This document shows positions 4,827 through 42,565 of a stretch of 64,000 nucleotides of DNA, piece after piece (positions within the stretch are counted from its first letter, which is position 1; each line of letters begins with the position of its first letter). The stretch is from Candidatus Omnitrophota bacterium (lineage in GTDB: Bacteria > Omnitrophota > Gorgyraeia > Gorgyraeales > Gorgyraeaceae). The stretch spans positions 6,038 to 70,037 of the forward strand of contig JBDRJN010000017.1 in the NCBI GenBank assembly GCA_043814965.1. Reading direction: 5' to 3'. Below the pieces are notes generated by a model, which searched no databases, was not told the origin of the DNA, and was given only the letters and a program-made list of their open reading frames with translations. The position numbers and the translations under genes are program-made.

Positions 4827-4833
4827 AAAAGGA

Positions 4834-5214: not shown

Positions 5215-5253
5215 AGTATTTGTATTTACTATAGTGACATTATCGAGGAGTTT

Positions 5254-5700
5254 ATGAAAAAAGCCTATATTGTTTTATGTTGTTTATTGATTGTACAGTT
5301 TTTTAAAGTAAGCGTATCTTTCTCTGACCAGCTTGCTATGACCAGAGATGGAAAAGAGGTCATATTAAAGGACAACAAGACCTGGGAATACCTTGAGGGC
5401 GGCAGAGAACAATTGAGCGTTACAAAAGTAGATATGGATGTAAAGAGATCCATGAAGCCTTATATAGAAAGAAAGGATGATATATTCACCAGGTTATTCA
5501 ATATTGATATTGATTGGGATACTGAGAATCTTGACATAAAATATAGAAGCGTTATGGAAGGCCTGTATTATACCGCGAAAAGATTTTCGAGGGATGATTT
5601 TTTCAGTAGATTAGTAAAGGCCTTTGGCGCTAAAGATAGCGAGAAGATCATGTGGCTGATGGAACGTTGGGATATATGGAGAAGAGTTGTAAGCAAATAA
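5254..5700 (+). CDS. hypothetical secreted protein
   Basis: N-terminal signal-peptide-like hydrophobic segment; no other motif. Confidence 0.35.
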   Translation: MKKAYIVLCCLLIVQFFKVSVSFSDQLAMTRDGKEVILKDNKTWEYLEGGREQLSVTKVDMDVKRSMKPYIERKDDIFTRLFNIDIDWDTENLDIKYRSVMEGLYYTAKRFSRDDFFSRLVKAFGAKDSEKIMWLMERWDIWRRVVSK

Positions 5701-5762
5701 ACCTGGCCAGGGCATTATTGTTTAACCCGCCTTACTTTAGTAAACCTAGAAAGATCTTTTAG

Positions 5763-26824: not shown

Positions 26825-27193
26825 ATGACCGATGACAAAGATTTTAGTTTTGAAAGATTAGAAGTATATAAAAAAGCGATCAGTTTTATAAATTCAGTTT
26901 TTAGCCTTTGTAATAAAATTCCTTATAAATTACAGAGCTCTCTTGGTGACCAGATGAGAAGAGCTTCTTTATCTATAGCAAATAATATTGCCGAAGGCAG
27001 TGACAAAAGGTTTCCTAAGGATAAAAAAAGATTTTACGATCATTCGCTTGATTCAGCCAGAGAATGCATTCCTATGTTTACAGTTTGTCTGAATCAGGGT
27101 ATAATTACAAGTAATATACATGATAAATTGAGAGACGAATGTATCGTGATCTGTAAGATGTTAAGACGTTTGATACAATCAGTCCCAGAATAA
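26825..27193 (+). CDS. four-helix-bundle protein (family encoded in 23S rRNA intervening sequences, TIGR02436/PF05635-like)
   Basis: Characteristic ..YKKAISF...LGDQMRRASLSIANNIAEG....DHSLDSARECI.. pattern. Confidence 0.7.
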   Translation: MTDDKDFSFERLEVYKKAISFINSVFSLCNKIPYKLQSSLGDQMRRASLSIANNIAEGSDKRFPKDKKRFYDHSLDSARECIPMFTVCLNQGIITSNIHDKLRDECIVICKMLRRLIQSVPE

Positions 27194-27250: not shown

Positions 27251-27552
27251 TCCCCTGTAGCTCAGCTGGTAGAGCGCGTGGCTGTTGAGCGGCGAAGCGA
27301 GCGCAAAACGTTTCGCACAAAGTTAGCAGCCTCTAATGGAAACATTAGAGTGGGAAAGCGGGTAAATTCAGGGAAAGCCTATAGAGTAGGTCAATCCTGA
27401 GCCAAGTCCGCCTAGGCGGAAAGGTGCAGAGACTAGACACTCGCTGCCTAAAGCTGGAAACAGCTATGGCAAAGGTATAGTCCGACTCTCCGAGTAATCG
27501 GAGTCAGATCGTAACCACGTTGTCCGAGGTTCGAGTCCTCGCGGGGGAGCCA
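27251..27552 (+). tRNA. tRNA-Asn (anticodon GTT) interrupted by a group I intron in the anticodon loop
   Basis: Exon 1 is 27251-27285 (acceptor TCCCCTG, D-arm GCTCAGCTGGTAGAGC, anticodon stem CGTGG, loop CTGT) and exon 2 is 27512-27552 (TAA, CCACG, T-arm CGAGG/CCTCG, acceptor CGGGGGA, G, CCA). The spliced anticodon loop CTGTTAA equals the E. coli tRNA-Asn loop. Confidence 0.75.
27286..27511 (+). ncRNA. group I self-splicing intron (226 nt) in tRNA-Asn
   Basis: Matches to all four conserved core elements: P AAATTCAGGGAAAGCC, Q AATCCTGAGCC, R GTGCAGAGACTAGACA, S AAGGTATAGTCC. The 5' exon ends in U and the intron ends in G. Confidence 0.75.
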
Positions 27553-27681
27553 ATCGAATGAAAGCCCTTTTTCGGAGATAATGGAAAAGGGCTTTCTTGT
27601 TGCTAGACATAGGGTTCAGTCTTTTAAAATAAAGTTCGAGCCGAGAATTTTCAAAATTTCTCTTTTAAGAGAGAGGTTTCC
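27553..27681. repeat. X element, copy 1, immediately 3' of the tRNA-Asn CCA; it contains the last ~22 codons of the recombinase gene
   Basis: Its reverse complement recurs at 29120-29248 with about 95% identity, and a same-strand variant recurs at 40614-40680. Confidence 0.8.
27561..27595. terminator. bidirectional hairpin terminator between tRNA-Asn and the convergent recombinase gene
   Basis: AAAGCCCTTTTTC-loop-GAAAAGGGCTTT stem. Confidence 0.5.
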
Positions 27682-27848
27682 TTGCCAAGCAATAGAACCT
27701 GCTTGATTACAAGTAGTTATGAAGTTTTTGGAGGGTTCGAGCCATCCGCCGCTTGTTTGATCTATCTCGCCAAGCCGCTCTTGTAATTCCTTCTTATCGT
27801 TAAGTAGCTTAGCTTTCTTTTTCTGATATTCTTCCTGCGAGATTTCTT
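27610..27848. repeat. ~240-bp direct repeat, copy A (X element plus 3' coding end of the recombinase gene)
   Basis: About 90% identical to 40614-40850, in the same orientation. Confidence 0.8.
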
Positions 27849-28986
27849 TAGAGATATAAAGATCAATAAGGCGTTCAATCTTAATGTCAAATTCCTTTAA
27901 CTTGTCATGGGCTTGGCGAGATAGAGAAGAGGAGGCTTTGCTTTCTCCGTTGGATAACTCGCCCAATCTATTCATCATTTTATCTTTAGTTTCATTATCT
28001 ATAAAAATTTTAAGGATAGCTTTATTTATCTGCGAAAGCAAAGCCTCTTCTCTAAGAAACTTTTGCGAGCATTTGACTATCTTCTTAGTGCATCGGTAAT
28101 AGGTATGGCCTTTATGAATCTCTGCTGTGATATACGCTCCACACTCGCCGCACTTAATAAGGCCTGTAAAAGCAAACTTAATCGCGCCTTTTTTGATAGG
28201 CTTAGCCTTTCGCTTCAAAACTTCCTGGACAGTATCAAAAAGTTTCTTAGAGACAAGCGGCGGGTGATTTGCTTCAAAAAGTTCGCCCTTAAATCTCATA
28301 ACTCCATAATAAAAAGGATTTCGTAAGATTGATGCGAGCGAACTTTTTCGGACAGGCTTGCCTGCCTTGCCTAAAATGCCCCATCTATGAATTTCTCTAA
28401 GTAGCTCCTCAAGCGAATAGTTGCCTCCTGCATATAACTCAAACATCTTTCGGACGAATGGCGCTTTCTCTGGGTCAGGCAAGATAGAGTGATCCTTAAA
28501 GTCATTGATATACCCAAGCGGAGCCCATCCAGGCCATTCGCCTCGGCGTAGTTTCTCACGTAATCCACGCTTCACATTTTCAGAAAGATTATCTATGTAG
28601 TATTTACTCTGCCCGAATGCGATAGAGAGCATAAACTTACCTTGAGCAGAGTTATCAAAGCGATATGTAGGGAATCTTAAGTCTATGATCTTACCAGTAT
28701 CTACGAGATAGATAATCTTTCCGCCGTCTATACTATTGCGGGCAAGCCTGTCCGGGTGCCATGCCAAAATTCCCTCGGCAATATTAGCTTCTATTTGCTT
28801 AAGCATGAAAGAGAAGATAGGCCGTCCCGGCTCTTTAGCTGTCTTAGCTTCAGTAAACTCATCAACTATCTCTAAAGACTCTTTTTTTGCGAATTCCCGC
28901 AACTCATTTATTTGCGATTCAATAGATAAGACTTGCCTATCTTCTTCATCCGTAGATTTCCTGGCGTATAAGTAGAATTTTGGCAT
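27616..28986 (-). CDS. large serine recombinase (resolvase/invertase catalytic domain, recombinase domain, zinc ribbon, coiled coil)
   Basis: N-terminal YARKSTDEED...SIESQ catalytic serine motif, central recombinase domain, CGECG...YYRC zinc ribbon, coiled-coil C-terminus. Confidence 0.85.
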   Translation of the reverse strand: MPKFYLYARKSTDEEDRQVLSIESQINELREFAKKESLEIVDEFTEAKTAKEPGRPIFSFMLKQIEANIAEGILAWHPDRLARNSIDGGKIIYLVDTGKIIDLRFPTYRFDNSAQGKFMLSIAFGQSKYYIDNLSENVKRGLREKLRRGEWPGWAPLGYINDFKDHSILPDPEKAPFVRKMFELYAGGNYSLEELLREIHRWGILGKAGKPVRKSSLASILRNPFYYGVMRFKGELFEANHPPLVSKKLFDTVQEVLKRKAKPIKKGAIKFAFTGLIKCGECGAYITAEIHKGHTYYRCTKKIVKCSQKFLREEALLSQINKAILKIFIDNETKDKMMNRLGELSNGESKASSSLSRQAHDKLKEFDIKIERLIDLYISKEISQEEYQKKKAKLLNDKKELQERLGEIDQTSGGWLEPSKNFITTCNQAGSIAWQGNLSLKREILKILGSNFILKD

Positions 28987-29119
28987 GGCATTAACCCTCC
29001 AAAAACTTTCTGTTGTCCCTCGGCTACGCTCGGGACTCCTTTCAGTCGCTTGGCAAAGTAAATTTTTTTGAGATCCATATAAATCTCAAAAATATTTCCT
29101 TATTCGCCGTAGGCGAAAA

Positions 29120-29248
29120 GGAAACCTCTCTCTTAAAAGAGATTTTTTAAAAATTCTCGGCTCGAACTTTATTTTAAAAGACCGAACCCTATGTCTAGCA
29201 ACAAGAAAGCCCTTTTCCATTATCTCCGAAAAAGGGCTTTCATTCGAT
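29120..29248. repeat. X element, copy 2, inverted, upstream of the recombinase start
   Basis: Reverse complement of 27553-27681. Confidence 0.8.
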
Positions 29249-29557
29249 TGGCTCTCTCTTTCGAACGATATACGAAACTATTTCAAGGGTTCCCTTGAAA
29301 TAGCGCCTTAAAGTTTTCAACGAATGGCTCGGCTGTGTGCTGAGGCGCCGCCCACCGCCTCAGCACACAGTGCCTTACTCGCTTGATAAAAGATGAGGTA
29401 GGTAAGGCGCTATCCTGCCTAACTCATACCTAATACGCCGTGGGGCAGGATGCCGAGCCAGCTCAAGCTCCCCGCACAAAAAGCAAATTTTGCCCCCACC
29501 CAAAATTTGCTTTTTGTGATGAAAAGAACATATATTGATTTATTTGGCTTGGGATAT
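29249..29557. repeat. left arm of a long imperfect inverted repeat bracketing the XRE and giant gene cargo; its outer end is a tRNA-3'-end-like sequence (minus strand ...TTCGAAAGAGAGAGCCA)
   Basis: The right arm at 40389-40546 is its reverse complement, apart from a ~150-nt internal insert that is itself a hairpin (GTGTGCTGAGG...CCTCAGCACAC). The arm also contains the perfect palindrome CACAAAAAGCAAATTTTG-CCCCCAC-CCAAAATTTGCTTTTTGTG. Confidence 0.75.
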
Positions 29558-29680
29558 TAGTTTGATTATCAAATAGACTATAGTTATGATTATCCCTGCT
29601 ATAATCCGTTCCAAATAAAACTTAAAATATCTATCCATGCTATAATGATACTTATAGTCATCATAAATGTCAAGATAAAA

Positions 29681-29713
29681 TGCTACTTATAGTATCGTAG
29701 ACAATAAGTAGCA
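29681..29713 (+). promoter_or_regulatory. candidate operator: perfect inverted repeat TGCTACTTAT-N13-ATAAGTAGCA upstream of the XRE gene
   Basis: 10-bp perfect inverted repeat arms; TATAAT-like hexamers lie at about 29620 and 29640. Confidence 0.45.
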
Positions 29714-29733
29714 AAAATGAGATAATTCATAGT

Positions 29734-29943
29734 ATGAAAAGCAATATTCTTAGACAATTTGGGGCTAAAGTTAAAAAACTTAGGAAAGCTAAGGGTTGGT
29801 CTCAAGAAGAACTTGCTGATAGATGCGGTCTTCATAGGACTTATATAGGCAGCATAGAAAGAAGTGAACGAAATGTTAGTTTAATTAACATCGAAAAAAT
29901 TGCAAAAGCGCTAGGTGCACCAGTTGGAAATTTGGTAGCGTAA
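29734..29943 (+). CDS. XRE-family helix-turn-helix transcriptional regulator
   Basis: Cro/C1-type HTH (QEELADRCGLHRTYIGSIERSERNVSLINIEKIAKAL). Confidence 0.8.
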   Translation: MKSNILRQFGAKVKKLRKAKGWSQEELADRCGLHRTYIGSIERSERNVSLINIEKIAKALGAPVGNLVA

Positions 29944-29954
29944 AAAAATTTTCC

Positions 29955-29983
29955 TTGCAAATCCTAACTTTTTTTGGTATAAT
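29955..29983 (+). promoter_or_regulatory. near-consensus promoter directly upstream of the giant gene (TTGCAA-17-TGgTATAAT)
   Basis: TTGCAA at 29955-29960, a 17-nt spacer, and an extended -10 TGGTATAAT at 29975-29983, about 10 nt before the ATG at 29994. Confidence 0.55.
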
Positions 29984-29993
29984 ACGTTAACGA

Positions 29994-32900
29994 TTGAATA
30001 AGAAGTATTTTAACGCAGATGGTGTCATGGGCTATCCAAGACGCCATTTTTTTGTCTACATTATGTCAAAGTTTAAAAAACCATTAATTAGTTTACTAAT
30101 ATCCGCTATATTTATTATTAATAATACAGCATATGCTATAGATCTGCCTGCAAAATCCTGCCTAAGAATCAATCACATGACAGACAAGGAGAATAAGGAT
30201 GAGGAAATAGGGAGGATCAAAGATGTGTATAAAGCGTTAGAGAACAACACAATTGAATCAGAAAAAAATATTCCAAGAGATAATAAAGGTAGATTCTCTG
30301 AAGAGGAAGGTAAAAATGCTATAGATATGGCCATGTTGCTTAGTGAAAGTAAATATGTAAATATACCATTTACAGTTAAAGAATATCATGAGATTTGGAA
30401 AGTAAAATATCCTGATAAGACAATCTCAACCAGTACAATATATAATGATTTAAACAAGGCTATAGAAAAAGGCTTGGTTGTAAAATCAAACAAAAGTTCT
30501 TATTATGAGTTAACCCAAAGAGCTAAGTCCCTTTTTTCTGAAGGATCTGATAATAAAGAGGAAAGATCACAAAGAAATATTCTATACAACGTTTCCGAAG
30601 CCAAGCTTTATACCAAGGCTGAAGATGGAACGCTTCGGAAAAATAAAAAATTTTATTTACCAGGAGAAGATAAAATATTTTTATCTTTAGTAAATAAACC
30701 TTTGAATAAAAAAGAAGACATTCTTGACAGGCAATTTGCCGTTACGTCTTTAATAGATGCGGGCAGTGAAAAAATAGAAGAATTAAAAGACAGCTCTTCT
30801 AGTGTATATCAATGGATAAATACCTATAAATATTTATGGGAAATAGATGAAAATGAAAGATATGGGGCTTTTGGATCAGGCAAATCTGCAAAGAGAAGGA
30901 TAGAGCAGTTTATAGATGAAGGCATAATTAATAAAGATACTTTGTCAGGCGATATTAAAAAAGCAGGAAAATCTGCGATAAAAGACGAAATGTCAAAGAA
31001 AGATGAGGCATTGCTAAAAATTAGGACAATAGATTACTATAAAGAAGAAGCGCAGGAGTTGGTAGATAACATAAGAAAGATTGCTGGCCAGGATGGAAAA
31101 GTCTTAAATGCTTTAGCGGATAATTTGCAGCGTAACATAGACAAGACAAATGCCCCAAGCCTCCTAGGTTTTATTGAATTGGTCGAAAAAAATAAGTGGG
31201 ATGCAATAAGTGATTTAATGCATAATTTAGAAAGCTTGGAATATTCAGTAGAAGAGATCAATGCGTTTTTGACATTTTCTGCCCTAGTTATTAATGATGA
31301 ATATGCAAAAGTAACTTATGATGATACAAAACCAGCTAGCTATAAAAATGGATGGCTATTTATAGAAAAGAAAAAAGCCGAAGAGCATTATTGGAGCGAT
31401 GAAGAAAAAGAGAAAGATCAGGTATTAAACGATAGCCCAGAAGATATACCAGTTGTTGTTTTAACAGGAAGCAATATGTCCGGTAAATCCCATTATCTAA
31501 AGCAGAATTATTTTATACAGCTTTTAGGCCAGTCTTTCGGATATGTCCCGGCTAAAGAGGCAAATTTACGTATATATGACCATATTGCCTATTTGGACAG
31601 GCCCTCTACTGACAGCTATAATGACTTAAGCGCATTTGGCAAAGAAATAGAAAACTGGAAACCTGTCATAAAAGATATATCAAGCAATTCCTTAGTATTT
31701 GTAGATGAAGGGTATTCTACGACTTCTCCTGAGGATCAGGCTAAGTTCTCAAAAGCAACCGCCGAATTTATTAAAGATAATAATGCACATATCATGATGG
31801 CTTCGCATAACGAAGAATTTATTAATACATTAAATGGGGCCGAAGGAACTAAATTTTATCATTTCGAGATAAATGTTGACGGCAATACGGTTGATTTTAC
31901 TAATAGATTGCGTGATGGCCCCGGAGATTCAAGTGCTTTAGATGTAGCAAAAGCACTTGGGCTGCCGCAAAGCATCTTAGACCGTTCCCAGAATTTTCTT
32001 GATGGAAAGATAGAGCCGGTAGAACCAAATCCAAATCACCTACCTAAAAATATTACCAGATACACAGAAGAAGAAAGAGAAGGATTAAAAAAGGAAACAG
32101 GAAATTTCCTTGCATTTTTCCCTTATGAAAATGTATTAGATATTAAGCCTGGTTACGATGGAAAAAATAAGCTGGAATTAAAATATAAGTCTCCTAATAA
32201 GATAGACCATTATGGTTATGGTTTTGGCAGTAATGATAAGCTAAAAGAAATTTATAACTTTGAGCCTATATTCAAACTTTTTAGCCAGGATAGGGATTTC
32301 AGCAATTTTTCCCCGATACTTAGTACAGATCTTGGGAAAATAAAAAACCCTAATTATATAACAAAGATTCAAAGCATATTAAAGCTCGGTTCTTCGAATG
32401 ATTCAAAGGAAATATTAGAGCGTCAAAAGATGTTTTCTGAATTAATATCAAAACCAGAACTTAGAGAATCCATGAGAGAAGATCTTTTGGGTATAGGTAA
32501 TCTAATGTATTCACTTGTGTTTGCAAGACAGTATATAAGTTTCGAAAGCTTTAATTTACAGTTTTTGGAGAGTGCTATACCTGATTTTAGGAATAGGATA
32601 GTTAAAGATGAAAATAAAGATGTATCTATGGATCTATTCCTGGGCATATTGGATATGAACTTAAAATTAACAGGCCTCGCGTATGAAGATATAGGAGTTT
32701 CGGAAGAAATCAAAAAATTGCAAAATTTACTTTCTATAGAATCTGAACTTGCGCAATTGTATGAAGAGGACCACAGGTATTGGATAGAAAATAAAGACAA
32801 TATGTCATCAGAGGGCTATAAGTCACAAGAAAAAGAATTCAAGAATAAAGTCACAGCTCTTGCAAAGAAATTTACTGAAATTACAGGTGAAAAACTCGTA

Positions 32901-35900
32901 AAGGAAGACAAATTTTATGTAACAGATATTAGGGAATCCCTAAAAAAGATATGCAAAGATATAAACGAAAAGGCTCAAGAAAAAATACCACCTGTCTCTC
33001 TTTTTGATGAAAATATCTGGCCTATATTAAGAGAAGAGACAGACAGGCTTTATCCTTTTGTTGATAATGAATTATCGCGCACTGTATTCTCCGCACCGCC
33101 TCATGTCATAGGTTTTTATTATATAAAAGCTTTATTGACAGATGAGAATTTGGTTGAAAAGCTTGTAGGGCAGCTAAAAAGTACGGATTCAGTCCATCTT
33201 CATCAATTTGCTAATTATTTTGATAAGATTTTTAATGTCTGGTTCGGAGAATTTAAGACAGGCATTGATTATTTAAAACATAAGAATGATTTACCAGGGA
33301 AAATAGCTGAAGTTGAAAAAAATATAAAAGAAGAAAAGGCATACCAAAAAAGCCTCATAAAAGGCAGTGAAGAAATAACCAGAATATTACAGGATAATCC
33401 GGATTTCCTGCAAAAAAGAATAGATGATTGCGAGGCGCAAATAAAAAATAAAGAAAAAGATATCGTGAATTATTCGGAGATTGTTGAGAGAAATCCGGGT
33501 GATGGCTATTGGGTTAATTTATTAAAAGAATCTAAGGATGCAAAGTTAAATTTAGAAAAAGAACTCAAAGATCTTCCTTTAGTTCAAAAGGCTGTAAATG
33601 GAGAAATATCTTTTGGCGATAATATAGACCAGGATTATCTTTTTAAACTGGTTCATGATGATTTTGTGGGTAGTAAGATCAGAAACTTATCCAGTAAATT
33701 AAGCATGTTGAAAGGCGAGCTAGATAGTAATCCTTTTGAAAGAAGAAGCGGTTTTGATGAAATACTAAATGAAAGTTTTAAGATGCATGTTTTATTGACT
33801 ATGGCATATTTAATGGATTATCAGGGATGGAAACCCGTTGAATTTACAAACGATCTTACTATAGATATGCAAGATGCCTGGAATCTTGTGAAGACAAAGG
33901 ATGAACAGGTGCCTTTAGATTTTACAATGAACGACAATGAAAAGGTAAAGATCTTTTCAGGGTCTAATATGTCAGGTAAGACCTTTGCTGAAAAGACCCT
34001 TATATGGAATGCTTTGTCAGGGCTAACTACAGGTTATGCTCCTAATGGGGGAATGAAAATGCCAATATTCGACCATGTAGTTTATATTGATAGAGTAACT
34101 GCGCAAATAGATAGAAAACTAAGCAGCTTTGGCCATGAAATAGAATACTGGAAAACATTCCTTAATGCTATAGATGATGATGACCTGGCTTTAGTTATTA
34201 TAGATGAGATGGGTTCAACTACGTCTCCAAAATATCAATCAGCATTATCTTATGCTATGTCAGAAGAGATGCTTGAAAAGGGGCATTTTCTTGTAGTTGC
34301 TTCGCATAATCATGCCTATATTGATGCATTTGAGAATACAAACGATAAATATAGTAATACCTATAATCTACTTACCAGGATAGATGAAGAAGGAAAAGCA
34401 GTGTTTGATTATAAGCTGGTTCCAGGGCATGAACCAAGTAATAGCATTGCGGTAGCAAAGACTATGGGATTTGATAAGATGGTTGGTTATATAGAAGAAG
34501 ATAATAAGGCCGATGAGTTGCTTATCCCAATATTGGCTGAACCGTATATTAATCATGACAAAGCAGTTAAGGATATGGTTAATCCTGGTAATAAGGATTT
34601 TGTAGGCCTATATGGAGGCGCAGGAGCAGACGTATCAAATGTTCTATATTCAACAAATGCTACTAAGGTTTATTTTGTTGATACAAGAAGTGTTTTCCTG
34701 GATAAACTTAAATACTATTGGCAGAATACCAAGCTTTCGCAAGAAGAAGAAAATCTATACAAGGAATATTCTAAGGAAAAATATTTTGCAGGATTCGGAG
34801 ATGTTGGGAAACTTATTGGAGATTTGGAGCTATATTTAACAGGTGAGTTAAAATCAATAGGTGTTACATCTAAAGACATAATAGATATTAATAATGACGA
34901 ATCAGGTAATCTTCGTATTAAATTTAACTGGGCATATGATAAAGATTCTCCTAAGAAAGAACGTGAAATTATCTTTATGCAGGATGATATTACTAAACCT
35001 TCTGACAAATTAATTGAATCAATAAATGGTAAGATAGATTTTTATTACCAAAGGGCAGCGTTGGACATCCCAATGAAATATAATGTTTTTATAAAGAAGA
35101 TAGGGGATTGCATGAAACCAAATGGTTTTATGATAACGGATAATAATTCCCCAAGAGGCGATTTTGGTTTTTACTATATAACACCTAAGCTAACAGATTT
35201 CAAGTTATTAGAAGACTCTAAAGATATGAAGACTAGCGCAAAAGAAATAGAGAACTTAAGGCGTGGGTATATGGGTCCTTATGGCTGGGCAGTTTCTATT
35301 ATGCAGAAGAAAGCAGAAAGCTTGGTTTCCAGCGAACCCACAGAAACTTCCCCTGGTCGCGGAACGGGAACAAATAACCCCACCCAGCCTACGAAAAACA
35401 TCCCTCTTGACAAGAAAGATATAGGCGCAAAGCTTGATGGTATAAAGCCAAAAAATATAAGTTCAATTAATCGAGACGCCAAGTCCGCTGAAGTACTAAA
35501 ATTCCTGGGAGACATAGATTCAGCTCCGAGTGATAAAAAAGCGCAGCTTGTGGTTGATTATATTTTAAACTTAAGCGGAATGGCTTTTAAAACAAAAAGT
35601 TTCCCTGTTTCAAAAGAAAGGCTTGATCAAATAGAAGATAGGCAATCTAAATTTTTAGAACGCTATTCAAAAAAACATGGCCTTTCACCGTCACTCAAAA
35701 AATATATCAACATTCAATATAGATCACTTACAAAGATATCAGAGGATAAATATGCAACGATAGCAAGTATTAATAGGATAGACTATTTTCTAGTGCTCTC
35801 AAAAGATGAATCAGGCATAGAGGATTTTAAACTTATATCCATGGATTCTAAAGATGAAATAAAGAAATATCAAAAAATTGCCAATAACTTTGTGCGAAAA

Positions 35901-38900
35901 ATTCTGCCAGGCGATAAAAATAAGAAGAAAAGAGAAAAAGTCGAGGACGACATTTCGAGTTTCTTTAATGAGATTAAAAGAAAAGCTAATAGAGATGAAG
36001 AATTTGATAGATTCTTCAAAGATACAGACCATCCTGACTTACCATTTAGTTATGCATTAGGCAGCCCTGCATTAAAAGTGCCGGAACTTGAATCAGCCAA
36101 AGAGCCTATCCAGTTGGAGGCTAAAACCGAAGAAAGAAAGTATAAGACTATCGCTGAAATAACTGATGAAGTTTTATTAAAACCAATTGAATCATTGATT
36201 AAAATAGATAAAGATGGCAACCCAAGGGCTTTAACGCAGGATGAGATCCTTTTAGAATATAAAAAAGGAGCGCTTGAAGCACTTAGGACAAAGGAAGGCT
36301 ATGAAGATGAATCTGAATTAAAGCAGTGGATTTCGCTTATATTGAAAGCAATAGAATATAATGATATGGAATTTAATCATATAGAAAAGAAAGAAGGATG
36401 GTTTCTCCTGGATGAAATATCTTTTCCTAAATTAAGAGAAAGCGCCAGAAAAAATATATTAACTGCTGCTACGATCCCAAGAGATGGAAAAACCTGGGTA
36501 TTTATAAAAGAAAATATGAACCTTTATCAGGCTGCATATGCTTTAACAAAACTCTCAGGAGTTGAACAAAAAATGACAATAGTTGGTTTAGGAGAAAAAT
36601 GTACCGAAACATTAAGATCCTCAATAAGAACTGTGATCCAAGAGGCGTATAAAGAAACCAAACCTATTGAGTCCAGCGAAATAAAAGATGAAGAAAAAAA
36701 CCTTGATTTTCATAATAGATTTTTACAAAAGCTCCATTATTCTTATAAAGTAGATCCAGAGTTCAGGAAAGCAATAGATGAACTACGCGAAAAAGTTTTA
36801 AGCCAGATACATCCACAAGAAAGTGAAGCTTTTAGATTTATTACAGATAATGAAATAACCAGCTTTGCTTTGGAATTTGCCGCGCGAATAGGAGAAACCC
36901 CTCTTATAGCTGACCCATATACCAGTTGGGGTATTATAGATAATGAGAAAGACGAGCCCCATTATTTTATAAACTATTCTGAACTTTATGCAAAACATAA
37001 AAAAGCTATTGATAAATACACGCATTATTCACATTACGAATTTATTATTGATGATGGCTCGTGGAGTGGGCTTAAGGTGAAAGGCGGGATGAATTATCTA
37101 TATAATACTCTTCGCAATATTTTTACATACAATGAAATAGTAGATTTTCTTAAAAGTGAAACAAATAAAGGGCTTATCAACCCAATAGTAAAACCCTATG
37201 AAACAGAACAGTTTTTCCTTCCTAATATTGATTTTACAAGGCCAAGCGATGAGGATGCCTTTGATAATATGAATATTGATCAGCTTTTCCAGGCAGTAGA
37301 AAATATGCCTAAAGAAGAATGGGAGAAATATAAAGTCAATATATTAAACCGATATTCCTATCTTGCCCGTAAAGGAGAAATAGAGCCAGTTTTTTTTATG
37401 AAACATATCAGCGCATTAGCAAAAAAAGATGTTGATATTTTACGGGATAAACACGCAAGCTGGGCTAGCGGCCATAAATATTATTTTGATAGGGCTGAAA
37501 TAACAAGGGCAATCATTGAGACTGTTTTAAGGTCTTCTAAATCAAGTTTTTTAAATGATGATTTCCTTTTAGAATATTATTCCCAGGCTGATGAAGTAAA
37601 AGATGACGGTACATTTGTTTACTATGAAACAAAGGATTACAAAAAAACTGACGAACAAATTTCACAAGTAAATGCTATCAATCGTCTTGCCAATGGTTAT
37701 ATGGGTGAAGGCCCTATATCCAGATATCCATTATATGCATTGTCTATGATCATGAATATTTCTCCTGAACGCATAGGCCCAAAAACTATGAATTTATTTG
37801 TTGCTATGGCAGAAGCAGGCAGGGATAGATATAAGCTATATATAGGAGACGATCGTGGCTGGCTAGAAGATAGCTATGGCGTAACCCCTGTTTTTGATAT
37901 ACCAATCAGAGCTTTTGACTATCACCCTGAATATTATTCTAAACTTTTGGTTGAATCTAAAATAACCCCGGATATTTTAACTTTTCTCATCAGGCCGGAG
38001 ACTGCCCCAGGGGATAATATAGGTCTGTTTTCTTCTCTGCGAGAACCAGGAGCAGAAGAAAGGGAATACAAAAGCTTTCTTTCAGGTGAAATAATAAAAG
38101 GTTTGGTTACAGGGAATTCAGTAGAGGGCAATCAACTCAAATTATTAAAAGCTATTATCAATGATTTTTCAGCAGTTGCCAACAATACTATTCTTGAACA
38201 CTGGAGAAAGTTTAGTAAAGATGACTTAAATTCACTTTTAGGGCTTAAAACAAAAGTAGATAGTTCCATACTTGAAAAAATGGAAACCATTTTTAGCAAA
38301 GAAGGATTAGGCAATAGGGTAGTTGCTTTGTTTTTAGCAATGTATCCTGATTTTAATATAGAAACTGCCAAGGATTTGGACAAGCTTTTAAAAGATGACT
38401 CAGTTCAAACTACATTTGGCATATTAAAAGCTATTAAAGATAAATTATGGACAATAGAAGAAATCAGGGCTCTTTATAGGGCTAATCTATGGAGTTTTAC
38501 CTCAGCTAATGTAAGGCATACTAATTTAAAACAAGTGCTTAATTTATCAGAAGAAGATAAGTCAAAGCTTTTCATAGTATTATCGGGTAAAAAATTATTG
38601 CCTCAGAATATTTTCGATATTTATCCTTTAAATATTCCAAAGGATCATGCGCTTTACGATAAATATAGCCATGAATTAAAAACTTACTCAATGAGTTATT
38701 CAAGTTTTACCGGAGCGATGGAAATGGTTGCAGATTCTAAGGAACTAGAAGAAAGCGTTAAAGGTAGAGTTACGCATAGGTCAAGGCTCTTATTTAATGA
38801 CCTTGGAGCTATCTTGAAATTGCCCAGGAAAGACCTGTTGAGAAAAGTTGAACTATTGGAAAAATTCGAGACGAACAAAGTTGAATTAGACAATACTGCT

Positions 38901-40355
38901 TACAGGCTCCTATTAGTAGTCCCAGAAGAACATTTTGATGAATTATTCGGTATTTTGGAAGAGAATTTTGATAGCCTTAAAAATCTGAAACAAACAAAGA
39001 AAGAAATAACTGCCAAATTTCAGGATATAGTTAAATTAAACCCTGAATTAAAGGATCTTTCGCAGAAAACCATTGTCCGATGGGCTAGTGAGCAAATGGG
39101 CATAACTTCGCGTAAAAGGCTTACAGAACCAGGCGCAAAAGACAATATTGCCAGCGCTTTTCGAGATAAGCTGAAAGCTGATGATCTAGGTAGAAAGGTA
39201 AATAGCGGGGAAGCGAGCGAGGAAGAAAATAAAAAATATATGAACCTGATAGCTGTAAATAAGTTATTATCAGCGATCGTTGATAATGTGAAACTATACA
39301 AATCCTGGCTTTCAGAGATACCAGATGCAGAGACTGACCCCAGCAAAATGTTGCCAGGCAAAGTCTTAATCGAACCCAATCAAACTACAGAAACCTCCCC
39401 TGGTCCGCGATCGGGATTGGTAGAAAACACCATAGAAAATTCTGAATCAGAAGAATCAAAGATCCAGACTCAGATTAGTGAATTTTTAAATATTACACGT
39501 GAAATCAATAGAAGCGATTCTAAACAAAAAGTTAATTATGTATTTGATAAGGTAGGCCCAAATATCGACACTATTTTAAGAGGCCATCTTTTAGATGAAG
39601 GTATTTCAGCTATTAGAAGAGAAATAACATATGACTCTAAAGATCTAGAACTCTTTGAAACATCAAAATATTTCTTAGAGCTTCTTATAGAAAATTCTAC
39701 AGTGTTTTCATCAGAAGATGCCTTAGCCGGCAGAATACAATTATTATCGAAGCAGTATAGTATGGTAGAAAGAGTTGTAAAAGAATGCGATGATCTTTTA
39801 AATAATCCTGCACTTATAAGTGAGTTTGCAGATGCAGTAAAAGGTTTTAAGTTGGATCTAGAGAAACAAAAAAATAAGATGACAAATATTATAGATTACT
39901 TAAAGGCTAAAGACTTTTTTGAAGAAGGAGAAAATCCATCCGAAGTCTTAGCTGATATTGAGATAGATCATGTAGTTTTAGATGTAATGGATGGCATAGG
40001 GCGTCCTAATAGTTTTGTAGGCATATTAGACGCTCTTTTGATAAAAGGAAACATTAAATCAATAACTGTATTTAGCCGTTCTCAAGATAGTTTAAATATT
40101 TTTATAGATAGAATAGGGCTTGAGAAATTTAATGAACTTAAAGAAAAAGGCATTAATTTTGTCGTAGAAAAAAAACTATGGGAAGAAGGCAATAATTCTG
40201 AAGCTAATCTTTGGGCGAAAGTAGGAAATGAATTGTTCAATATAGATAGGCATATGTTTGGCGATAAAATAGGAATAAATAGGGTAACGATATTAAATGT
40301 TAAAGATAAACTATCAGAAGGAAAAATGCTAATAGAACATCTAAATAATATGTAA
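29994..40355 (+). CDS. giant 3453-aa multidomain protein with two MutS-family (domain V) ABC-ATPase modules and an N-terminal signal/anchor segment
   Basis: Uninterrupted 10.4-kb ORF. The first module at aa ~485-655 has Walker A GSNMSGKS, Walker B LVFVDEGYSTTSP, and the MutS C-terminal motif GPGDSSALDVAKALGLPQSIL. The second at aa ~1320-1490 has GSNMSGKT, LVIIDEMGSTTSP and SNSIAVAKTMGF. MutS-core-like helices precede module 2. A possible Rossmann GxGxG (LYGGAGADVS) lies at aa ~1540, with ETSPG(R/P) linkers. An alternative start at the Met at 30063 (MSKFKKPLISLLISAIFII) would give a signal peptide. Confidence 0.8.
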   Translation: MNKKYFNADGVMGYPRRHFFVYIMSKFKKPLISLLISAIFIINNTAYAIDLPAKSCLRINHMTDKENKDEEIGRIKDVYKALENNTIESEKNIPRDNKGRFSEEEGKNAIDMAMLLSESKYVNIPFTVKEYHEIWKVKYPDKTISTSTIYNDLNKAIEKGLVVKSNKSSYYELTQRAKSLFSEGSDNKEERSQRNILYNVSEAKLYTKAEDGTLRKNKKFYLPGEDKIFLSLVNKPLNKKEDILDRQFAVTSLIDAGSEKIEELKDSSSSVYQWINTYKYLWEIDENERYGAFGSGKSAKRRIEQFIDEGIINKDTLSGDIKKAGKSAIKDEMSKKDEALLKIRTIDYYKEEAQELVDNIRKIAGQDGKVLNALADNLQRNIDKTNAPSLLGFIELVEKNKWDAISDLMHNLESLEYSVEEINAFLTFSALVINDEYAKVTYDDTKPASYKNGWLFIEKKKAEEHYWSDEEKEKDQVLNDSPEDIPVVVLTGSNMSGKSHYLKQNYFIQLLGQSFGYVPAKEANLRIYDHIAYLDRPSTDSYNDLSAFGKEIENWKPVIKDISSNSLVFVDEGYSTTSPEDQAKFSKATAEFIKDNNAHIMMASHNEEFINTLNGAEGTKFYHFEINVDGNTVDFTNRLRDGPGDSSALDVAKALGLPQSILDRSQNFLDGKIEPVEPNPNHLPKNITRYTEEEREGLKKETGNFLAFFPYENVLDIKPGYDGKNKLELKYKSPNKIDHYGYGFGSNDKLKEIYNFEPIFKLFSQDRDFSNFSPILSTDLGKIKNPNYITKIQSILKLGSSNDSKEILERQKMFSELISKPELRESMREDLLGIGNLMYSLVFARQYISFESFNLQFLESAIPDFRNRIVKDENKDVSMDLFLGILDMNLKLTGLAYEDIGVSEEIKKLQNLLSIESELAQLYEEDHRYWIENKDNMSSEGYKSQEKEFKNKVTALAKKFTEITGEKLVKEDKFYVTDIRESLKKICKDINEKAQEKIPPVSLFDENIWPILREETDRLYPFVDNELSRTVFSAPPHVIGFYYIKALLTDENLVEKLVGQLKSTDSVHLHQFANYFDKIFNVWFGEFKTGIDYLKHKNDLPGKIAEVEKNIKEEKAYQKSLIKGSEEITRILQDNPDFLQKRIDDCEAQIKNKEKDIVNYSEIVERNPGDGYWVNLLKESKDAKLNLEKELKDLPLVQKAVNGEISFGDNIDQDYLFKLVHDDFVGSKIRNLSSKLSMLKGELDSNPFERRSGFDEILNESFKMHVLLTMAYLMDYQGWKPVEFTNDLTIDMQDAWNLVKTKDEQVPLDFTMNDNEKVKIFSGSNMSGKTFAEKTLIWNALSGLTTGYAPNGGMKMPIFDHVVYIDRVTAQIDRKLSSFGHEIEYWKTFLNAIDDDDLALVIIDEMGSTTSPKYQSALSYAMSEEMLEKGHFLVVASHNHAYIDAFENTNDKYSNTYNLLTRIDEEGKAVFDYKLVPGHEPSNSIAVAKTMGFDKMVGYIEEDNKADELLIPILAEPYINHDKAVKDMVNPGNKDFVGLYGGAGADVSNVLYSTNATKVYFVDTRSVFLDKLKYYWQNTKLSQEEENLYKEYSKEKYFAGFGDVGKLIGDLELYLTGELKSIGVTSKDIIDINNDESGNLRIKFNWAYDKDSPKKEREIIFMQDDITKPSDKLIESINGKIDFYYQRAALDIPMKYNVFIKKIGDCMKPNGFMITDNNSPRGDFGFYYITPKLTDFKLLEDSKDMKTSAKEIENLRRGYMGPYGWAVSIMQKKAESLVSSEPTETSPGRGTGTNNPTQPTKNIPLDKKDIGAKLDGIKPKNISSINRDAKSAEVLKFLGDIDSAPSDKKAQLVVDYILNLSGMAFKTKSFPVSKERLDQIEDRQSKFLERYSKKHGLSPSLKKYINIQYRSLTKISEDKYATIASINRIDYFLVLSKDESGIEDFKLISMDSKDEIKKYQKIANNFVRKILPGDKNKKKREKVEDDISSFFNEIKRKANRDEEFDRFFKDTDHPDLPFSYALGSPALKVPELESAKEPIQLEAKTEERKYKTIAEITDEVLLKPIESLIKIDKDGNPRALTQDEILLEYKKGALEALRTKEGYEDESELKQWISLILKAIEYNDMEFNHIEKKEGWFLLDEISFPKLRESARKNILTAATIPRDGKTWVFIKENMNLYQAAYALTKLSGVEQKMTIVGLGEKCTETLRSSIRTVIQEAYKETKPIESSEIKDEEKNLDFHNRFLQKLHYSYKVDPEFRKAIDELREKVLSQIHPQESEAFRFITDNEITSFALEFAARIGETPLIADPYTSWGIIDNEKDEPHYFINYSELYAKHKKAIDKYTHYSHYEFIIDDGSWSGLKVKGGMNYLYNTLRNIFTYNEIVDFLKSETNKGLINPIVKPYETEQFFLPNIDFTRPSDEDAFDNMNIDQLFQAVENMPKEEWEKYKVNILNRYSYLARKGEIEPVFFMKHISALAKKDVDILRDKHASWASGHKYYFDRAEITRAIIETVLRSSKSSFLNDDFLLEYYSQADEVKDDGTFVYYETKDYKKTDEQISQVNAINRLANGYMGEGPISRYPLYALSMIMNISPERIGPKTMNLFVAMAEAGRDRYKLYIGDDRGWLEDSYGVTPVFDIPIRAFDYHPEYYSKLLVESKITPDILTFLIRPETAPGDNIGLFSSLREPGAEEREYKSFLSGEIIKGLVTGNSVEGNQLKLLKAIINDFSAVANNTILEHWRKFSKDDLNSLLGLKTKVDSSILEKMETIFSKEGLGNRVVALFLAMYPDFNIETAKDLDKLLKDDSVQTTFGILKAIKDKLWTIEEIRALYRANLWSFTSANVRHTNLKQVLNLSEEDKSKLFIVLSGKKLLPQNIFDIYPLNIPKDHALYDKYSHELKTYSMSYSSFTGAMEMVADSKELEESVKGRVTHRSRLLFNDLGAILKLPRKDLLRKVELLEKFETNKVELDNTAYRLLLVVPEEHFDELFGILEENFDSLKNLKQTKKEITAKFQDIVKLNPELKDLSQKTIVRWASEQMGITSRKRLTEPGAKDNIASAFRDKLKADDLGRKVNSGEASEEENKKYMNLIAVNKLLSAIVDNVKLYKSWLSEIPDAETDPSKMLPGKVLIEPNQTTETSPGPRSGLVENTIENSESEESKIQTQISEFLNITREINRSDSKQKVNYVFDKVGPNIDTILRGHLLDEGISAIRREITYDSKDLELFETSKYFLELLIENSTVFSSEDALAGRIQLLSKQYSMVERVVKECDDLLNNPALISEFADAVKGFKLDLEKQKNKMTNIIDYLKAKDFFEEGENPSEVLADIEIDHVVLDVMDGIGRPNSFVGILDALLIKGNIKSITVFSRSQDSLNIFIDRIGLEKFNELKEKGINFVVEKKLWEEGNNSEANLWAKVGNELFNIDRHMFGDKIGINRVTILNVKDKLSEGKMLIEHLNNM

Positions 40356-40388
40356 CTTTTCACTTTTTTATCTCTTTATTATAATCTC

Positions 40389-40546
40389 GTATCCCAAGCC
40401 AAATAAATCAATATATGTTCTTTTCATCACAAAAAGCAAATTTTGGGTGGGGGCAGCCGCCACAGATGTCTGCCGAGCCATTCGTTGAAAATTTCATGGC
40501 TTTATTTCAAGGGAACCCTTGAAATACTTTCGTATCTCGTCCGAAA
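40389..40546. repeat. right arm of the long inverted repeat, ending in the tRNA-3'-like ...GAAAGAGAGAGCCA
   Basis: Reverse complement of parts of 29249-29557. Confidence 0.75.
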
Positions 40547-40613
40547 GAGAGAGCCAGTCAACACAGGGGCTTATTTTTACGACGAGTTCGTAAGGGTAAG
40601 CCCTTTTTATTAT

Positions 40614-40850
40614 TAGGGTTCGGTCTTTTAAAATAAAGTTCGAGCCGAGAATTTTCAAAATTTCTCTTTTAAGAGAGAGGTTTCCTTGCCAAGCAATAGA
40701 ACCTGCTTCGTTACAAGTAGTTATGAAGTTTTTGGAGGGTTCGAGCCATCCGCCGCTTGATTTAGCGAGCTCGCCAAGTCGCTCCTGTAAGTCTTTCTTA
40801 TCATTGAGTAATTTAGCCTTCTTTTTCTGATATTCTTCCTGTGAAATCTC
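40614..40850. repeat. direct repeat copy B: X-element variant plus a truncated 3' fragment of a recombinase gene (pseudogene remnant, minus strand)
   Basis: About 90% identity to 27610-27848; no intact ORF. Confidence 0.75.
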
Positions 40851-41086
40851 CTATAGCCGTAGCTGCGGGATCCATATCAATTAATGCTGAACAACCAACT
40901 TCTTAGTGGTACAATAGATGGAGGGGGGGGGAAGGTCATTTACGGCAAGAGAGAAGAAGATCGAATCCCGTCCCATCCTAAAATTTCCCTGATAAATAGT
41001 ATTGCGTACACCAAAGCAGTTTGTTATAATATATAAACTTTGATATAAAATGTTTTTAAACTTTAATATCAAGAAAGAGGTCATTA

Positions 41087-42565
41087 ATGATACAAACTGA
41101 GAAGAAATCGACTCACCGTAATATAGCTCCAGAAGACCGTATTCCGTTTTTTCAAAAAGTTATATATGGCATGGGATCATTAGCCAATGACAGCCAAGCT
41201 GCTTTTATTGGACAGATGATTATTGTTTTAAATCTTGGATTAGGCGTGAGTCCATTTTTGGTCGGGATTATTGGGTGTATCCCGCGTATTTTTGATGCTG
41301 TCTTGGACCCTATCGTTGGATACAGCTCAGATAATACTCGTACTAAATACGGAAGGCGCAGGCCTTTTATATTTTTTGGAGCGATTACTGCGGGGATTTT
41401 TTATTTTTTTATGTTCCAAGTTTATCCTGGCCGTAGCGAAATGTATTATTTCTGGCATATTCTGATCTTTCAGGTCCTATTTTTCGCTGGATTTACCTGT
41501 TATTCTATTCCCTGGATCGCGCTTGGATATGAAATGACCCCGGATTATCATGAACGCACGACCCTCCAAAGTACAAGCAGGATATTCGCTCAGGTGCCGT
41601 GGTTGATCGCTCCATGGTGCTGGGCTATTATGCATAGTAAACGTTGGTTCTCTAATCCTGAGACAGGAGCCTCAGATGTTGTTCTTGGCGCGAGGACCCT
41701 AGCTATTATTATCGGAGCTGTAATTATTTTCTTTGGTATTTTGCCGGCGATCTTTAATAAGGAACATTTTGGTAATTTACCTAAACCTATAAAAGGGAAG
41801 ACCCCATTAGATGTTTTAAAAAATATGCTCAATGGCATTGCTATTACATTTAAGAACAAGTTATTTGCCAAGATCTGCGCTGTAACGTTCCTGATCTTTA
41901 ACGGATTTATGCTTAGTTCCACTTTTATTGCTTATGTGATATTCTTTTATGTTTTTCAACATGCTGATTCAATGGATGCCGCTTATGGGGCCGGAGGAAG
42001 ACTCTTGGGTTTTTATGGAACGTTTAGCGCTATTTGCACTGTAGGTGTAGTCTCTATAATCCCGTGGATGTCAAGGAAGCTAGGAAAACGAAATGCCTTC
42101 TTTATCACGATCCCTATTTCAATCATAGGTTATGCTATGAAATGGATAGGCTATAACCAAATACATCCTTACCTTCTTTTGGTCTGCGCGCCATTTATTG
42201 TATTCGGCTTAGGATCGCTTTTTACGCTGATCCTGTCCATGGTGGCTGACGTGTGTGATATTGATGAGCTCCAGACAGGTGAACGCCGCGAGGGTGTGTT
42301 CAGCGCAGTTTACTGGTGGATGGTCAAATTGGGGTTAGCCATTGCCTCACTTATAGGAGGAATTCTTCTGACTGGAACTGGTTTTAAGCAGGAATTAGGC
42401 CTTGGTCAAGCAAATGAGACATTGCTCTGGATGAGGATTTTTGATGTCTTTATCCCGATCGTGACATCTATTATTGCCCTTTTCGTTATCTCGAAAATTG
42501 ATATCTCTGAAGAAAAGGCATATAATATTCGTAAACAGCTAGAGGCAAGAAGAGGGAAGGCGTAA
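41087..42565 (+). CDS. MFS transporter, glycoside-pentoside-hexuronide (GPH):cation symporter-like
   Basis: 12 TM helices with GPH-like N-terminal motifs (DAVLDPIVGYSSDNTRTKYGRRRPF). Confidence 0.7.
   Translation: MIQTEKKSTHRNIAPEDRIPFFQKVIYGMGSLANDSQAAFIGQMIIVLNLGLGVSPFLVGIIGCIPRIFDAVLDPIVGYSSDNTRTKYGRRRPFIFFGAITAGIFYFFMFQVYPGRSEMYYFWHILIFQVLFFAGFTCYSIPWIALGYEMTPDYHERTTLQSTSRIFAQVPWLIAPWCWAIMHSKRWFSNPETGASDVVLGARTLAIIIGAVIIFFGILPAIFNKEHFGNLPKPIKGKTPLDVLKNMLNGIAITFKNKLFAKICAVTFLIFNGFMLSSTFIAYVIFFYVFQHADSMDAAYGAGGRLLGFYGTFSAICTVGVVSIIPWMSRKLGKRNAFFITIPISIIGYAMKWIGYNQIHPYLLLVCAPFIVFGLGSLFTLILSMVADVCDIDELQTGERREGVFSAVYWWMVKLGLAIASLIGGILLTGTGFKQELGLGQANETLLWMRIFDVFIPIVTSIIALFVISKIDISEEKAYNIRKQLEARRGKA

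Follow-up and report, generated by a model that had tools for sequence, protein, structure and literature searches.

Within a 64,000-nucleotide stretch of Candidatus Omnitrophota DNA (contig JBDRJN010000017.1; hereafter the window), positions 27553-40556 most probably constitute one integrated mobile element that was driven into a tRNA-Asn gene by a large serine integrase and that has the attachment (att) site layout of a widespread family. A first-pass annotation of this DNA had suggested a tRNA-targeting integrative element, and this suggestion is borne out by junctions that share a core only, by the B-type and P-type spacing of the half-sites flanking that core, and by the large serine recombinase domains of the encoded protein. 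The nested inverted repeats at this locus are the standard att-site layout of the family and not a feature specific to the window, and the locus as a whole appears to be a serine-integrase island belonging to a large and apparently uncharacterised group.

Attachment sites at the tRNA-Asn gene

Self-comparison of the window between positions 26000 and 42500 (all coordinates are those of the whole stretch) recovered every repeat that had been listed previously, with coordinates agreeing to within a few bases. The first repeat, X, lies directly 3' of the tRNA-Asn gene and includes the C-terminal codons of the recombinase, and the recombinase gene is, as described, bracketed by X (27547-27683) and its inverted copy (29118-29254), which are 97% identical over 137 nt. 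The adjoining segment, which carries an XRE-family regulator gene and a giant open reading frame (ORF), is likewise bracketed by an imperfect inverted repeat, Y, in two parts: 29246-29359 against 40446-40559 (82% identity) and 29491-29556 against 40390-40455 (100%), the left arm being longer by 141 nt. With gaps allowed, the block 29118-29333 aligns in inverse with 40472-40687 throughout. The reported direct repeat of X plus the recombinase 3' end, about 13 kb away, is also present (27610-27846 against 40614-40850; 237 nt, 92% identity). The general order is thus tRNA 3' end, X, integrase with its 3' end towards the tRNA, inverted X, inverted Y, XRE gene and cargo, Y, and flank, and the features on which the argument depends are as follows.

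27251-27552, plus strand: tRNA-Asn(GUU) gene, the integration target, with T54 at 27530, N73 at 27549 and a group I intron at 27286-27511
27547-27552, plus strand: core GAGCCA at the predicted attL (tRNA/X junction), the sole sequence common to all three junctions
27547-27683, plus strand: left arm X, comprising the core, a hairpin terminator at 27560-27596 (terminator scan) and the last 68 nt of the integrase gene; predicted P' side of attL
27616-28986, minus strand: large serine recombinase (integrase) of 456 aa, 3' end towards the tRNA; Pfam Resolvase, Recombinase and Zn_ribbon_recom
29118-29254, minus strand: inverted copy of X (self-comparison); predicted P' side of the internal attP
29249-29563, minus strand: internal copy of Y, with a P-type half-site, a 20-bp palindrome and a 141-nt insertion; with inverted X, a predicted complete inverted attP
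40383-40556, plus strand: far copy of Y, terminating in the core GAGCCA at 40551-40556; the predicted attR is its P half-site followed by the flank

Analysis of the recombinase using Pfam identified the catalytic domain PF00239 (3e-21, aa 5-151) followed by the Recombinase domain PF07508 (2e-18) and the zinc ribbon PF13408 (3e-9). S11 within the motif YARKS was invariant in a 20-member alignment, and the window integrase, which is intact, retains all family-invariant residues. The protein therefore has the catalytic serine, the Resolvase domain, and the C-terminal Recombinase and zinc beta-ribbon domains of a serine integrase. Distant sequence similarity was found to the SPbeta integrase structure 9dxh, and the best NCBIfam match was to CcrB (109 bits against a cut-off of 900), with CcrA at 71 bits against 700.

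ARAGORN detected no tRNA at 27251-27552 in the unspliced sequence because a group I intron splits the gene. This intron of 226 nt lies in the anticodon loop of tRNA-Asn(GUU) and was matched by Rfam (RF00028, 73 bits over 27276-27504); joining of the exons at 27285/27512 yields a 75-nt tRNA-Asn(GUU) that folds in ARAGORN, and the 5' exon has U as its last base and the intron has G, both of which are needed for group I splicing. The same intron-bearing tRNA is found in a syntenic relative, locus L001 (1769-2005).

The core GAGCCA occurs at 27547-27552, 29249-29254 (as its complement) and 40551-40556. Across the family, the tRNA/X, internal Y/X and Y/flank junctions have 4-10 nt in common, namely the last acceptor bases, the discriminator and usually CCA. 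Sharing of so few nucleotides, in place of a long end duplication, is compatible with crossover at a central dinucleotide. A palindromic GC crossover dinucleotide was considered as the reason for the inverted copy and rejected, as elements at tRNAs with A73, U73 or C73 have matching non-GC cores.

The two sides of the core differ in the spacing of a conserved motif. In the window, the T-loop hexamer TTCGAG of tRNA-Asn lies 19 nt from N73, while the corresponding Y motif, TTCGTA, lies 24 nt from it (29271-29276 on the minus strand and 40529-40534, with N73 at 40553). An alignment of 40 non-redundant loci anchored on the discriminator gave the same result, with the tRNA side reading GGTTCGAATCC... 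and T54 placed 19 nt before N73, and the Y side reading GTTCGaATTTt..., where the same hexamer precedes the corresponding position by 24 nt. Among 68 non-redundant loci, 62 have the exact 24-nt spacing in Y, the spacing in the tRNA being 19 nt. For LI integrase, the distance of the zinc-ribbon motif from the centre is 5 bp shorter in attB than in attP (Rutherford et al., PMC3783163), and the left half-sites here show this same 5-bp shift; no conserved motif was found in the right half-sites. Together with the published LI rule, the spacings of 19 and 24 nt indicate that the tRNA end is a B-type half-site, which corresponds to the T-arm and acceptor 3' strand of tRNA-Asn, and that Y is a P-type half-site. 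It follows that tRNA/X is attL, far Y/flank is attR, and the internal, inverted Y/X junction is an intact attP, and on this sequence evidence the window can be shown to hold an attL at 27547-27552, an intact inverted attP at approximately 29249-29276 and an attR at 40551-40556. The first-pass annotation had described the outer tips of Y as mimics of a tRNA 3' end, each followed by X. Such a mimic does exist, although the one predicted to function is TTCGTA and not the nearer TTCGAAAG; and while the internal Y is indeed followed by X, the right-hand Y is followed by 57 unrelated nucleotides (40557-40613) before homology to X and the integrase 3' end begins.

To place this locus in context, 82 genomic and 80 metagenomic loci were compared. 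The integrase has 7993 homologues with E<1e-20, among them an identical protein annotated from a Candidatus Omnitrophota metagenome-assembled genome (MAG), and the same layout recurs in over 100 independent assemblies, drawn from Omnitrophota, Patescibacteria, Elusimicrobia, Nitrospirota, Bacteroidota and others, which excludes chance as its origin. These include AP024682.1 (titled complete genome), OY970195.1 (titled chromosome) and the genome of Schleiferia thermophila DSM 21410. Inverted arms of at least 45 nt, and up to 189 nt, surround the integrase gene at 62 of the 82 genome loci, and the pattern recurs in the metagenome loci. The median identity of the X arms within a locus is 99.1% (68 non-redundant loci), while the arm sequence itself is highly variable between genomes. 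A subclade consisting of L003, L009 and L011 has an inverted duplication of just 33-34 nt, equivalent to the core and about one half-site, so that it is a complete second attP, and not long homology arms, that the family retains.

Of 167 copies, 87 have a real tRNA 3' end next to the arm on the 3' side of the integrase; the tRNAs occupied are those for Ser, Gln, Asp, Gly, Asn, Arg, Trp, Ala and His. The remaining copies are mostly accounted for by truncated contigs, an intron-bearing tRNA (L001) and tandem arrays in which the end of another element is the neighbour. The 5'-side arm adjoins a conserved pseudo T-arm, which is the end of Y. At loci extending at least 700 nt beyond the upstream arm and having an inverted Y match of at least 80 nt, a second, inverted copy of Y was present 0.8-7 kb farther out in 24 of 24 cases, usually with 99-100% identity. 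Elements with about 95% identical integrase nucleotide sequence and the same X and Y occupy different tRNAs in Patescibacteria, Schleiferia thermophila (Bacteroidota) and Thermodesulfovibrio (L033, L035, L036 and L037), implying recent transfer between phyla.

Orientation, concerted evolution and alternative explanations

The first-pass annotation had offered, as an alternative to integration, a segment inverted under the control of a serine invertase. In 87 loci the tRNA lies on the 3' side of the integrase, and L151 alone has it on the 5' side. Similarly, the XRE gene lies at the integrase-proximal end of the Y-bounded segment in 48 loci and at the opposite end in none, and the same is true of 18 of the 18 delimited elements that have one. 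As frequent inversion across the X or Y arms would give both orientations among relatives and only one was seen, an inversion switch is not supported; these counts are derived from consensus assemblies and not from reads, so that a minority orientation may exist within a population.

The exceptional locus, L151 (1562-3380), consists of tRNA-His, X, a co-directional integrase gene, inverted X, and an inverted, diverged tRNA-like 3' fragment with B-type spacing, with no Y. This is the arrangement that recombination between an internal attP and a tRNA site would be expected to give.

Although the arms are not seen to invert, they do not evolve independently. In 40 pairs of related elements with integrase nucleotide identities of 87-95%, we counted 243 X-arm differences between elements that were common to both arms, against 137 differences within one element. 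As independent drift predicts only the latter kind, the copies are evidently homogenised, and without crossover inversions; a non-crossover form of gene conversion would be what maintains the likeness of the repeat pairs. The idea that homogenisation of the Y arms depends on distance was also considered and rejected, as cargo length and Y identity are uncorrelated (rho -0.16, p 0.44).

These observations bear directly on the unlikely alternative that the recombinase flips the 1.4-kb X segment or the 11-kb Y segment in the manner of Hin, giving phase-varying cargo or a phase-varying recombinase. Near-perfect inverted repeats do surround both segments, the recombinase gene is enclosed by one repeat pair in the manner of hin, interaction between the copies is evident from the way in which the arms evolve in concert, and assemblies frequently break at these repeats. 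Such breaks, however, are expected from any assembler at repeats exceeding the read length, and the fixed orientation (87:1 for the integrase, 48:0 and 18:0 for the XRE end) speaks against a switch and against the invertible segment proposed earlier. Furthermore, the protein is a 456-aa large serine recombinase and not an invertase of about 190 aa, the paired sites are asymmetric in their B and P spacing and thus att-like, unlike hix or gix, and the repeat is reduced to 34 nt in one subclade.

We consider it very unlikely that X, the integrase and inverted X form an autonomous transposon resembling an insertion sequence (IS), with 137-bp terminal inverted repeats, that landed by coincidence, or at a hot spot, between the tRNA and an unrelated Y cassette. 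Some contigs span exactly from arm to arm (L058, 1649 nt), many homologues are found on contigs of 1.6-2 kb, and L151 contains the module alone, in opposite orientation, between tRNA-His and an inverted tRNA-like fragment. Arm-to-arm contigs are nonetheless the expected assembly product of an inverted repeat, and the loci examined gave no case of the module apart from a tRNA 3' end or another element's Y end; in nearly all of them it is linked with Y, XRE and cargo in a single orientation. It lacks a target-site duplication and has a tRNA or a Y end as the flank on the integrase 3' side at nearly all loci, and its arms start with the last bases of the tRNA itself and shrink to one half-site in L003, L009 and L011.

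Finally, there is hardly any probability that the structure arose from assembly or binning, through the collapse or chimeric joining of a single island's two strain variants, which the first-pass annotation had named as a finding that would overturn its reading: the source is a MAG contig, and a difference of 8-18% between the Y copies and between the integrase 3' ends is of the kind that strain variants could show, but recurrence of the nested architecture in the more than 100 independent assemblies noted above, including AP024682.1, OY970195.1 and Schleiferia thermophila DSM 21410, excludes such an artefact.

A model for integration and its relation to known systems

In the model that we favour, an integrated element driven by its own serine integrase, the zinc-ribbon domain would read the T-loop motif, and crossover would take place inside the core by a 2-bp exchange. 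The free form would be a circle in which far Y is joined to left X, with a predicted junction running from far Y (end 40556) to ATCGAATGAAAGCCC and on past 27683 into the 3' coding sequence of the integrase, and the empty site is predicted to read ...CGCGGGGGAGCCA joined to GTCAACACAGGGG. In the integrated state, the internal attP would not serve as a recombination partner, and as the orientation of the integrase segment is fixed, attL presumably does not react with it. Use of this site for integration, through linear DNA, plasmid capture or a single-stranded hairpin, was considered and rejected, as it predicts that the 5' end of the integrase gene lies beside the tRNA, which is found only in L151. 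Since models in which the internal attP recombines all predict this rare L151-type arrangement, a non-recombinational role is favoured. The site lies in the leader between a predicted promoter and the integrase gene, which makes an autoregulatory site, bound by the integrase to limit its own expression, the most likely role, although we hold this view loosely.

Several points weigh against this model. The proposed regulatory role draws solely on the position of the site and on matches to promoter consensus sequences. A circle with two identical attP sites should integrate both ways, yet one orientation is seen, and for this the model offers no explanation. In the clade to which the window belongs, the P' half (the start of X) is not conserved, which leaves the distinction between attL and attB unexplained; were attL not distinguished from attB, the integrase segment should flip, contrary to what is observed. 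No empty site, circle junction or read-level support was obtained for the window element. A search for an empty site through homologues of the downstream major facilitator superfamily (MFS) transporter (P0127, P0129 and P0133; L083-L087) yielded neither tRNA-Asn nor an empty site, as L083-L087 keep the MFS gene and the next gene while their upstream neighbours differ. Lastly, the window element is comparatively decayed, with X arms 97% identical, a Y pair of 82-100% identity with the 141-nt insertion, and a P motif of TTCGTA instead of TTCGAA; given this motif and the degraded Y pair, the window copy may be immobile.

The family shares features with several known systems. Like the phage-type integrases (A118/LI, SPbeta SprA, Bxb1 and phiC31), its recombinases have the set of Resolvase, Recombinase and zinc-ribbon domains, and its sites have a short shared core and a motif that is 5 bp nearer in the host site (the LI rule, PMC3783163). 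It differs from them in targeting the 3' ends of many different tRNA genes, in having a conserved motif in only one half of each site, in being nearly absent from viral contigs, in that no directionality factor was identified, and, for the element described here, in keeping a second complete inverted attP when integrated. In our search, only 6 relatives were found in 2.9 million viral contigs, none of them informative regarding a free circular form, and the elements that we examined contained no recognisable genes for conjugation or of phage origin. With so few viral relatives and a cargo of restriction-modification, ATPase and helix-turn-helix (HTH) genes, the elements do not have the character of prophages or phage satellites.

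The staphylococcal cassette chromosome element SCCmec, mobilised by CcrA/CcrB/CcrC, is alike in being a small, non-conjugative, non-phage island with large serine recombinases at the 3' end of a conserved gene. New arrivals settle beside the target gene to give tandem arrays with older elements or remnants, the cargo is exchangeable, and CcrB is the best NCBIfam match of the window integrase. The element described here differs in targeting a tRNA gene instead of rlmH and in encoding one recombinase and not a pair, with a CcrB score of 109 bits against 900; it also has an internal inverted copy of the attachment site, which SCC elements lack. Islander-type islands and tycheposons, which use tyrosine integrases, likewise integrate at tRNA 3' ends with the integrase gene beside the tRNA junction, supply the last tRNA bases and a terminator so that the tRNA remains intact, carry defence cargo and occupy sites serially. 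In contrast, the recombinase here is a serine recombinase only, the end repeat is 4-10 nt versus a tRNA fragment of 15-50 nt, and the far end is a pseudo T-arm with shifted spacing, sharing GAGCCA only, and not a displaced piece of tRNA. In the Hin, Gin and Cin systems the recombinase gene also lies between inverted repeats that are presumed binding sites, whereas the protein here belongs to a different class (it is not a protein of about 190 aa with a C-terminal HTH), the sites are asymmetric and no second orientation was seen.

Serine integrases are not known to target tRNA genes according to the Islander study (PMC4383910), and Mageeney et al. (PMC7192596) similarly noted that they were not known at tRNA genes, reporting 14 candidates among 297 and calling for experimental proof. 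We found no description of an internal inverted attP or of the present family in the literature, our coverage of which was incomplete, so that a prior description is possible. Considered jointly, an integrase that reads the T-loop, a permanent inverted attP with a mechanistic role, kept identical to the split site by conversion that involves no inversion, and a Y-bounded defence cassette could represent an undescribed class of element, a proposal that we put forward tentatively and to which we give somewhat less than even weight. In that joint reading, the universality of the T-loop may let the integrase use many tRNA genes across very different phyla; the internal attP may take over the part of a directionality factor as a DNA-encoded control of how much integrase is made or of its directionality, or may form a hairpin during single-stranded transfer; and the Y-bounded slot may be an exchangeable cassette for restriction-modification and other defence genes.

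Since it is tyrosine integrases that classically insert at tRNA genes, the presence of thousands of related serine integrases at tRNA 3' ends is notable, and the site logic of the family follows directly from the published attP/attB spacing rule. If our reading is correct, the family would provide a natural set of compact, apparently factor-light integrases with a target in every bacterium, useful for engineering uncultivated or recalcitrant lineages, and a vehicle that carries restriction-modification and other defence genes between phyla, including the ultra-small Patescibacteria and the Omnitrophota. The conserved internal attP and concerted evolution without inversion would then pose a concrete mechanistic question about the control of serine integrases.

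Cargo, older remnants and neighbouring features

The other features of the element and its flank are as follows.

27634-27642, plus strand: T-loop-like motif GTTCGAGCC, formed by the C-terminal Gly-Ser-Asn codons; further copies at 29159-29167 (inverted) and 40638-40646
28987-29117, minus strand: integrase 5' region with palindrome TTTTTGAGAT..ATCTCAAAAA and conserved CTTTGCCAAGCGAC, kept in L001 and L002
29564-29733, no strand assigned: divergent promoter-like region with a minus site at 29673->29645 and a plus site at 29698-29726 (consensus matches only)
29734-29943, plus strand: XRE-family HTH regulator, a backbone gene; Pfam HTH_3, and PADLOC restriction-modification 'control protein' at 8e-27
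29994-40355, plus strand: giant cargo ORF of 3453 aa with two MutS-like ATPase domains and an N-terminal hydrophobic stretch
40557-40850, minus strand: stump left by an older related element, with a separate hairpin (40557-40613), an X-like part and the last 77 integrase codons, broken off at 40850

An XRE homologue lies just outside the integrase-proximal Y, on the strand opposite the integrase, at 48 of 77 loci. The minus promoter-like site (11 of 12 consensus matches) reads through Y and X towards the integrase, and the plus site would serve the XRE gene, this being a consensus match only; similar divergent pairs, again recognised by consensus matches only, are present in L007 and L010. In 24 elements the cargo consists mostly of restriction-modification genes, encoding N6/N4, N6, D12 and C5 methylases, Eco57I-type, DpnI, TdeIII and MvaI/BcnI enzymes and type I subunits, together with AAA_21/AAA_15 ATPases and HNH nucleases, and unrelated cargo is found on backbones that are 94% identical. 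Judged from these sequences, a divergent XRE gene with exchangeable cargo can be regarded as shown to be the standard design of the family.

Within the giant ORF, Pfam detected MutS_V over two matched stretches, the best at aa 489-669, and the NCBIfam matches to MutS, MutS2 and KamC fell below cut-off. Reading of the translation by eye revealed a hydrophobic, signal-peptide-like stretch and a second P-loop at about aa 1510 (domain approximately 1500-1650). No domain besides the two MutS-like ATPases was recognised by Pfam or NCBIfam. Identification with a known defence protein was rejected, as PADLOC gave only a weak PDC-M38A match over the ATPase.

Among 61 non-redundant integrase genes, the C-terminal Ser codon is TCG in all 61 and the Asn codon is AAC in 58, with Gly encoded by GGC or GGT. 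On the tRNA strand these codons read GTTCGA(G/A)CC and so provide a third motif resembling the T-loop, at a distance of roughly 85 nt from the core. Their invariance suggests a constraint at the level of DNA or RNA, and the motif is possibly an accessory binding site. In one Patescibacteria-centred subfamily (L033, L036, L045, L048, L050 and related loci), the last codons of the integrase recur as an inverted 27-nt copy (AAAATAAAGTTCGAGCCGATATTTTTT) that lies beyond Y, about 140 nt outside the core, instead of inside the X arm. At its other end, the integrase gene is preceded by a region that, in the comparison of loci, contains a short second inverted repeat against the gene's 3' end.

Y has further peculiarities. 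In both copies the P-type motif is closely flanked on its outer side by a perfect 20-bp palindrome, TTTCAAGGGAACCCTTGAAA (40505-40524 and 29281-29300), in which compensating changes are found in relatives (ttcaaggatgtccttgaa in L012 and cttcaggggaacccctgaag in L038); it may be an operator or an RNA hairpin. The extra 141 nt (approximately 29360-29500) is present in the internal Y only, with no further copy within the window, and both holds a long GC-rich hairpin (ctgtgtgctgaggcg...cgcctcagcacacag) and turns the adjacent sequence into a perfect palindrome at 29478-29520. Searches for a known RNA in Y using Rfam (E-value mode) gave only spurious hairpin matches in 29100-29750 and none in 40300-41100, and a transfer-messenger RNA (tmRNA) or intron-bearing tRNA within Y was suspected early and then rejected.

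The direct repeat had been taken to mean that the element has duplicated. The sequence beyond 40556 is instead what is left of a distinct relative that was inserted earlier: no relation to X is seen in its first 57 nt, and its coding part is 92% identical to 27610-27846. A similar serial pattern is found at five other loci (L033, L050, L065, L068 and L076), where the attR flank is the X-start of a different element type, and L065 contains two intact elements in tandem. The simplest reading is serial insertion, with the newest element next to the tRNA and older ones displaced downstream and decaying. At 40950-40985, 100 nt past the integrase stump, the sequence agatcgaatcccgtcccatcct resembles a T-arm with an acceptor 3' strand; no tRNA or Rfam match was found there, and it is possibly what remains of a former target or of the end of a former element.

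Upstream of tRNA-Asn, the gene for a thiamine pyrophosphate (TPP)-dependent oxidoreductase subunit (24744-26783) carries an intein (Intein_splicing, PT-HINT), and its L001 orthologue (2765-6460; 1231 aa) has two intein matches and a LAGLIDADG domain. A gene for a 23S rRNA intervening-sequence protein follows at 26825-27193, and together with the intein and the group I intron it makes for a dense collection of selfish elements near tRNA-Asn.

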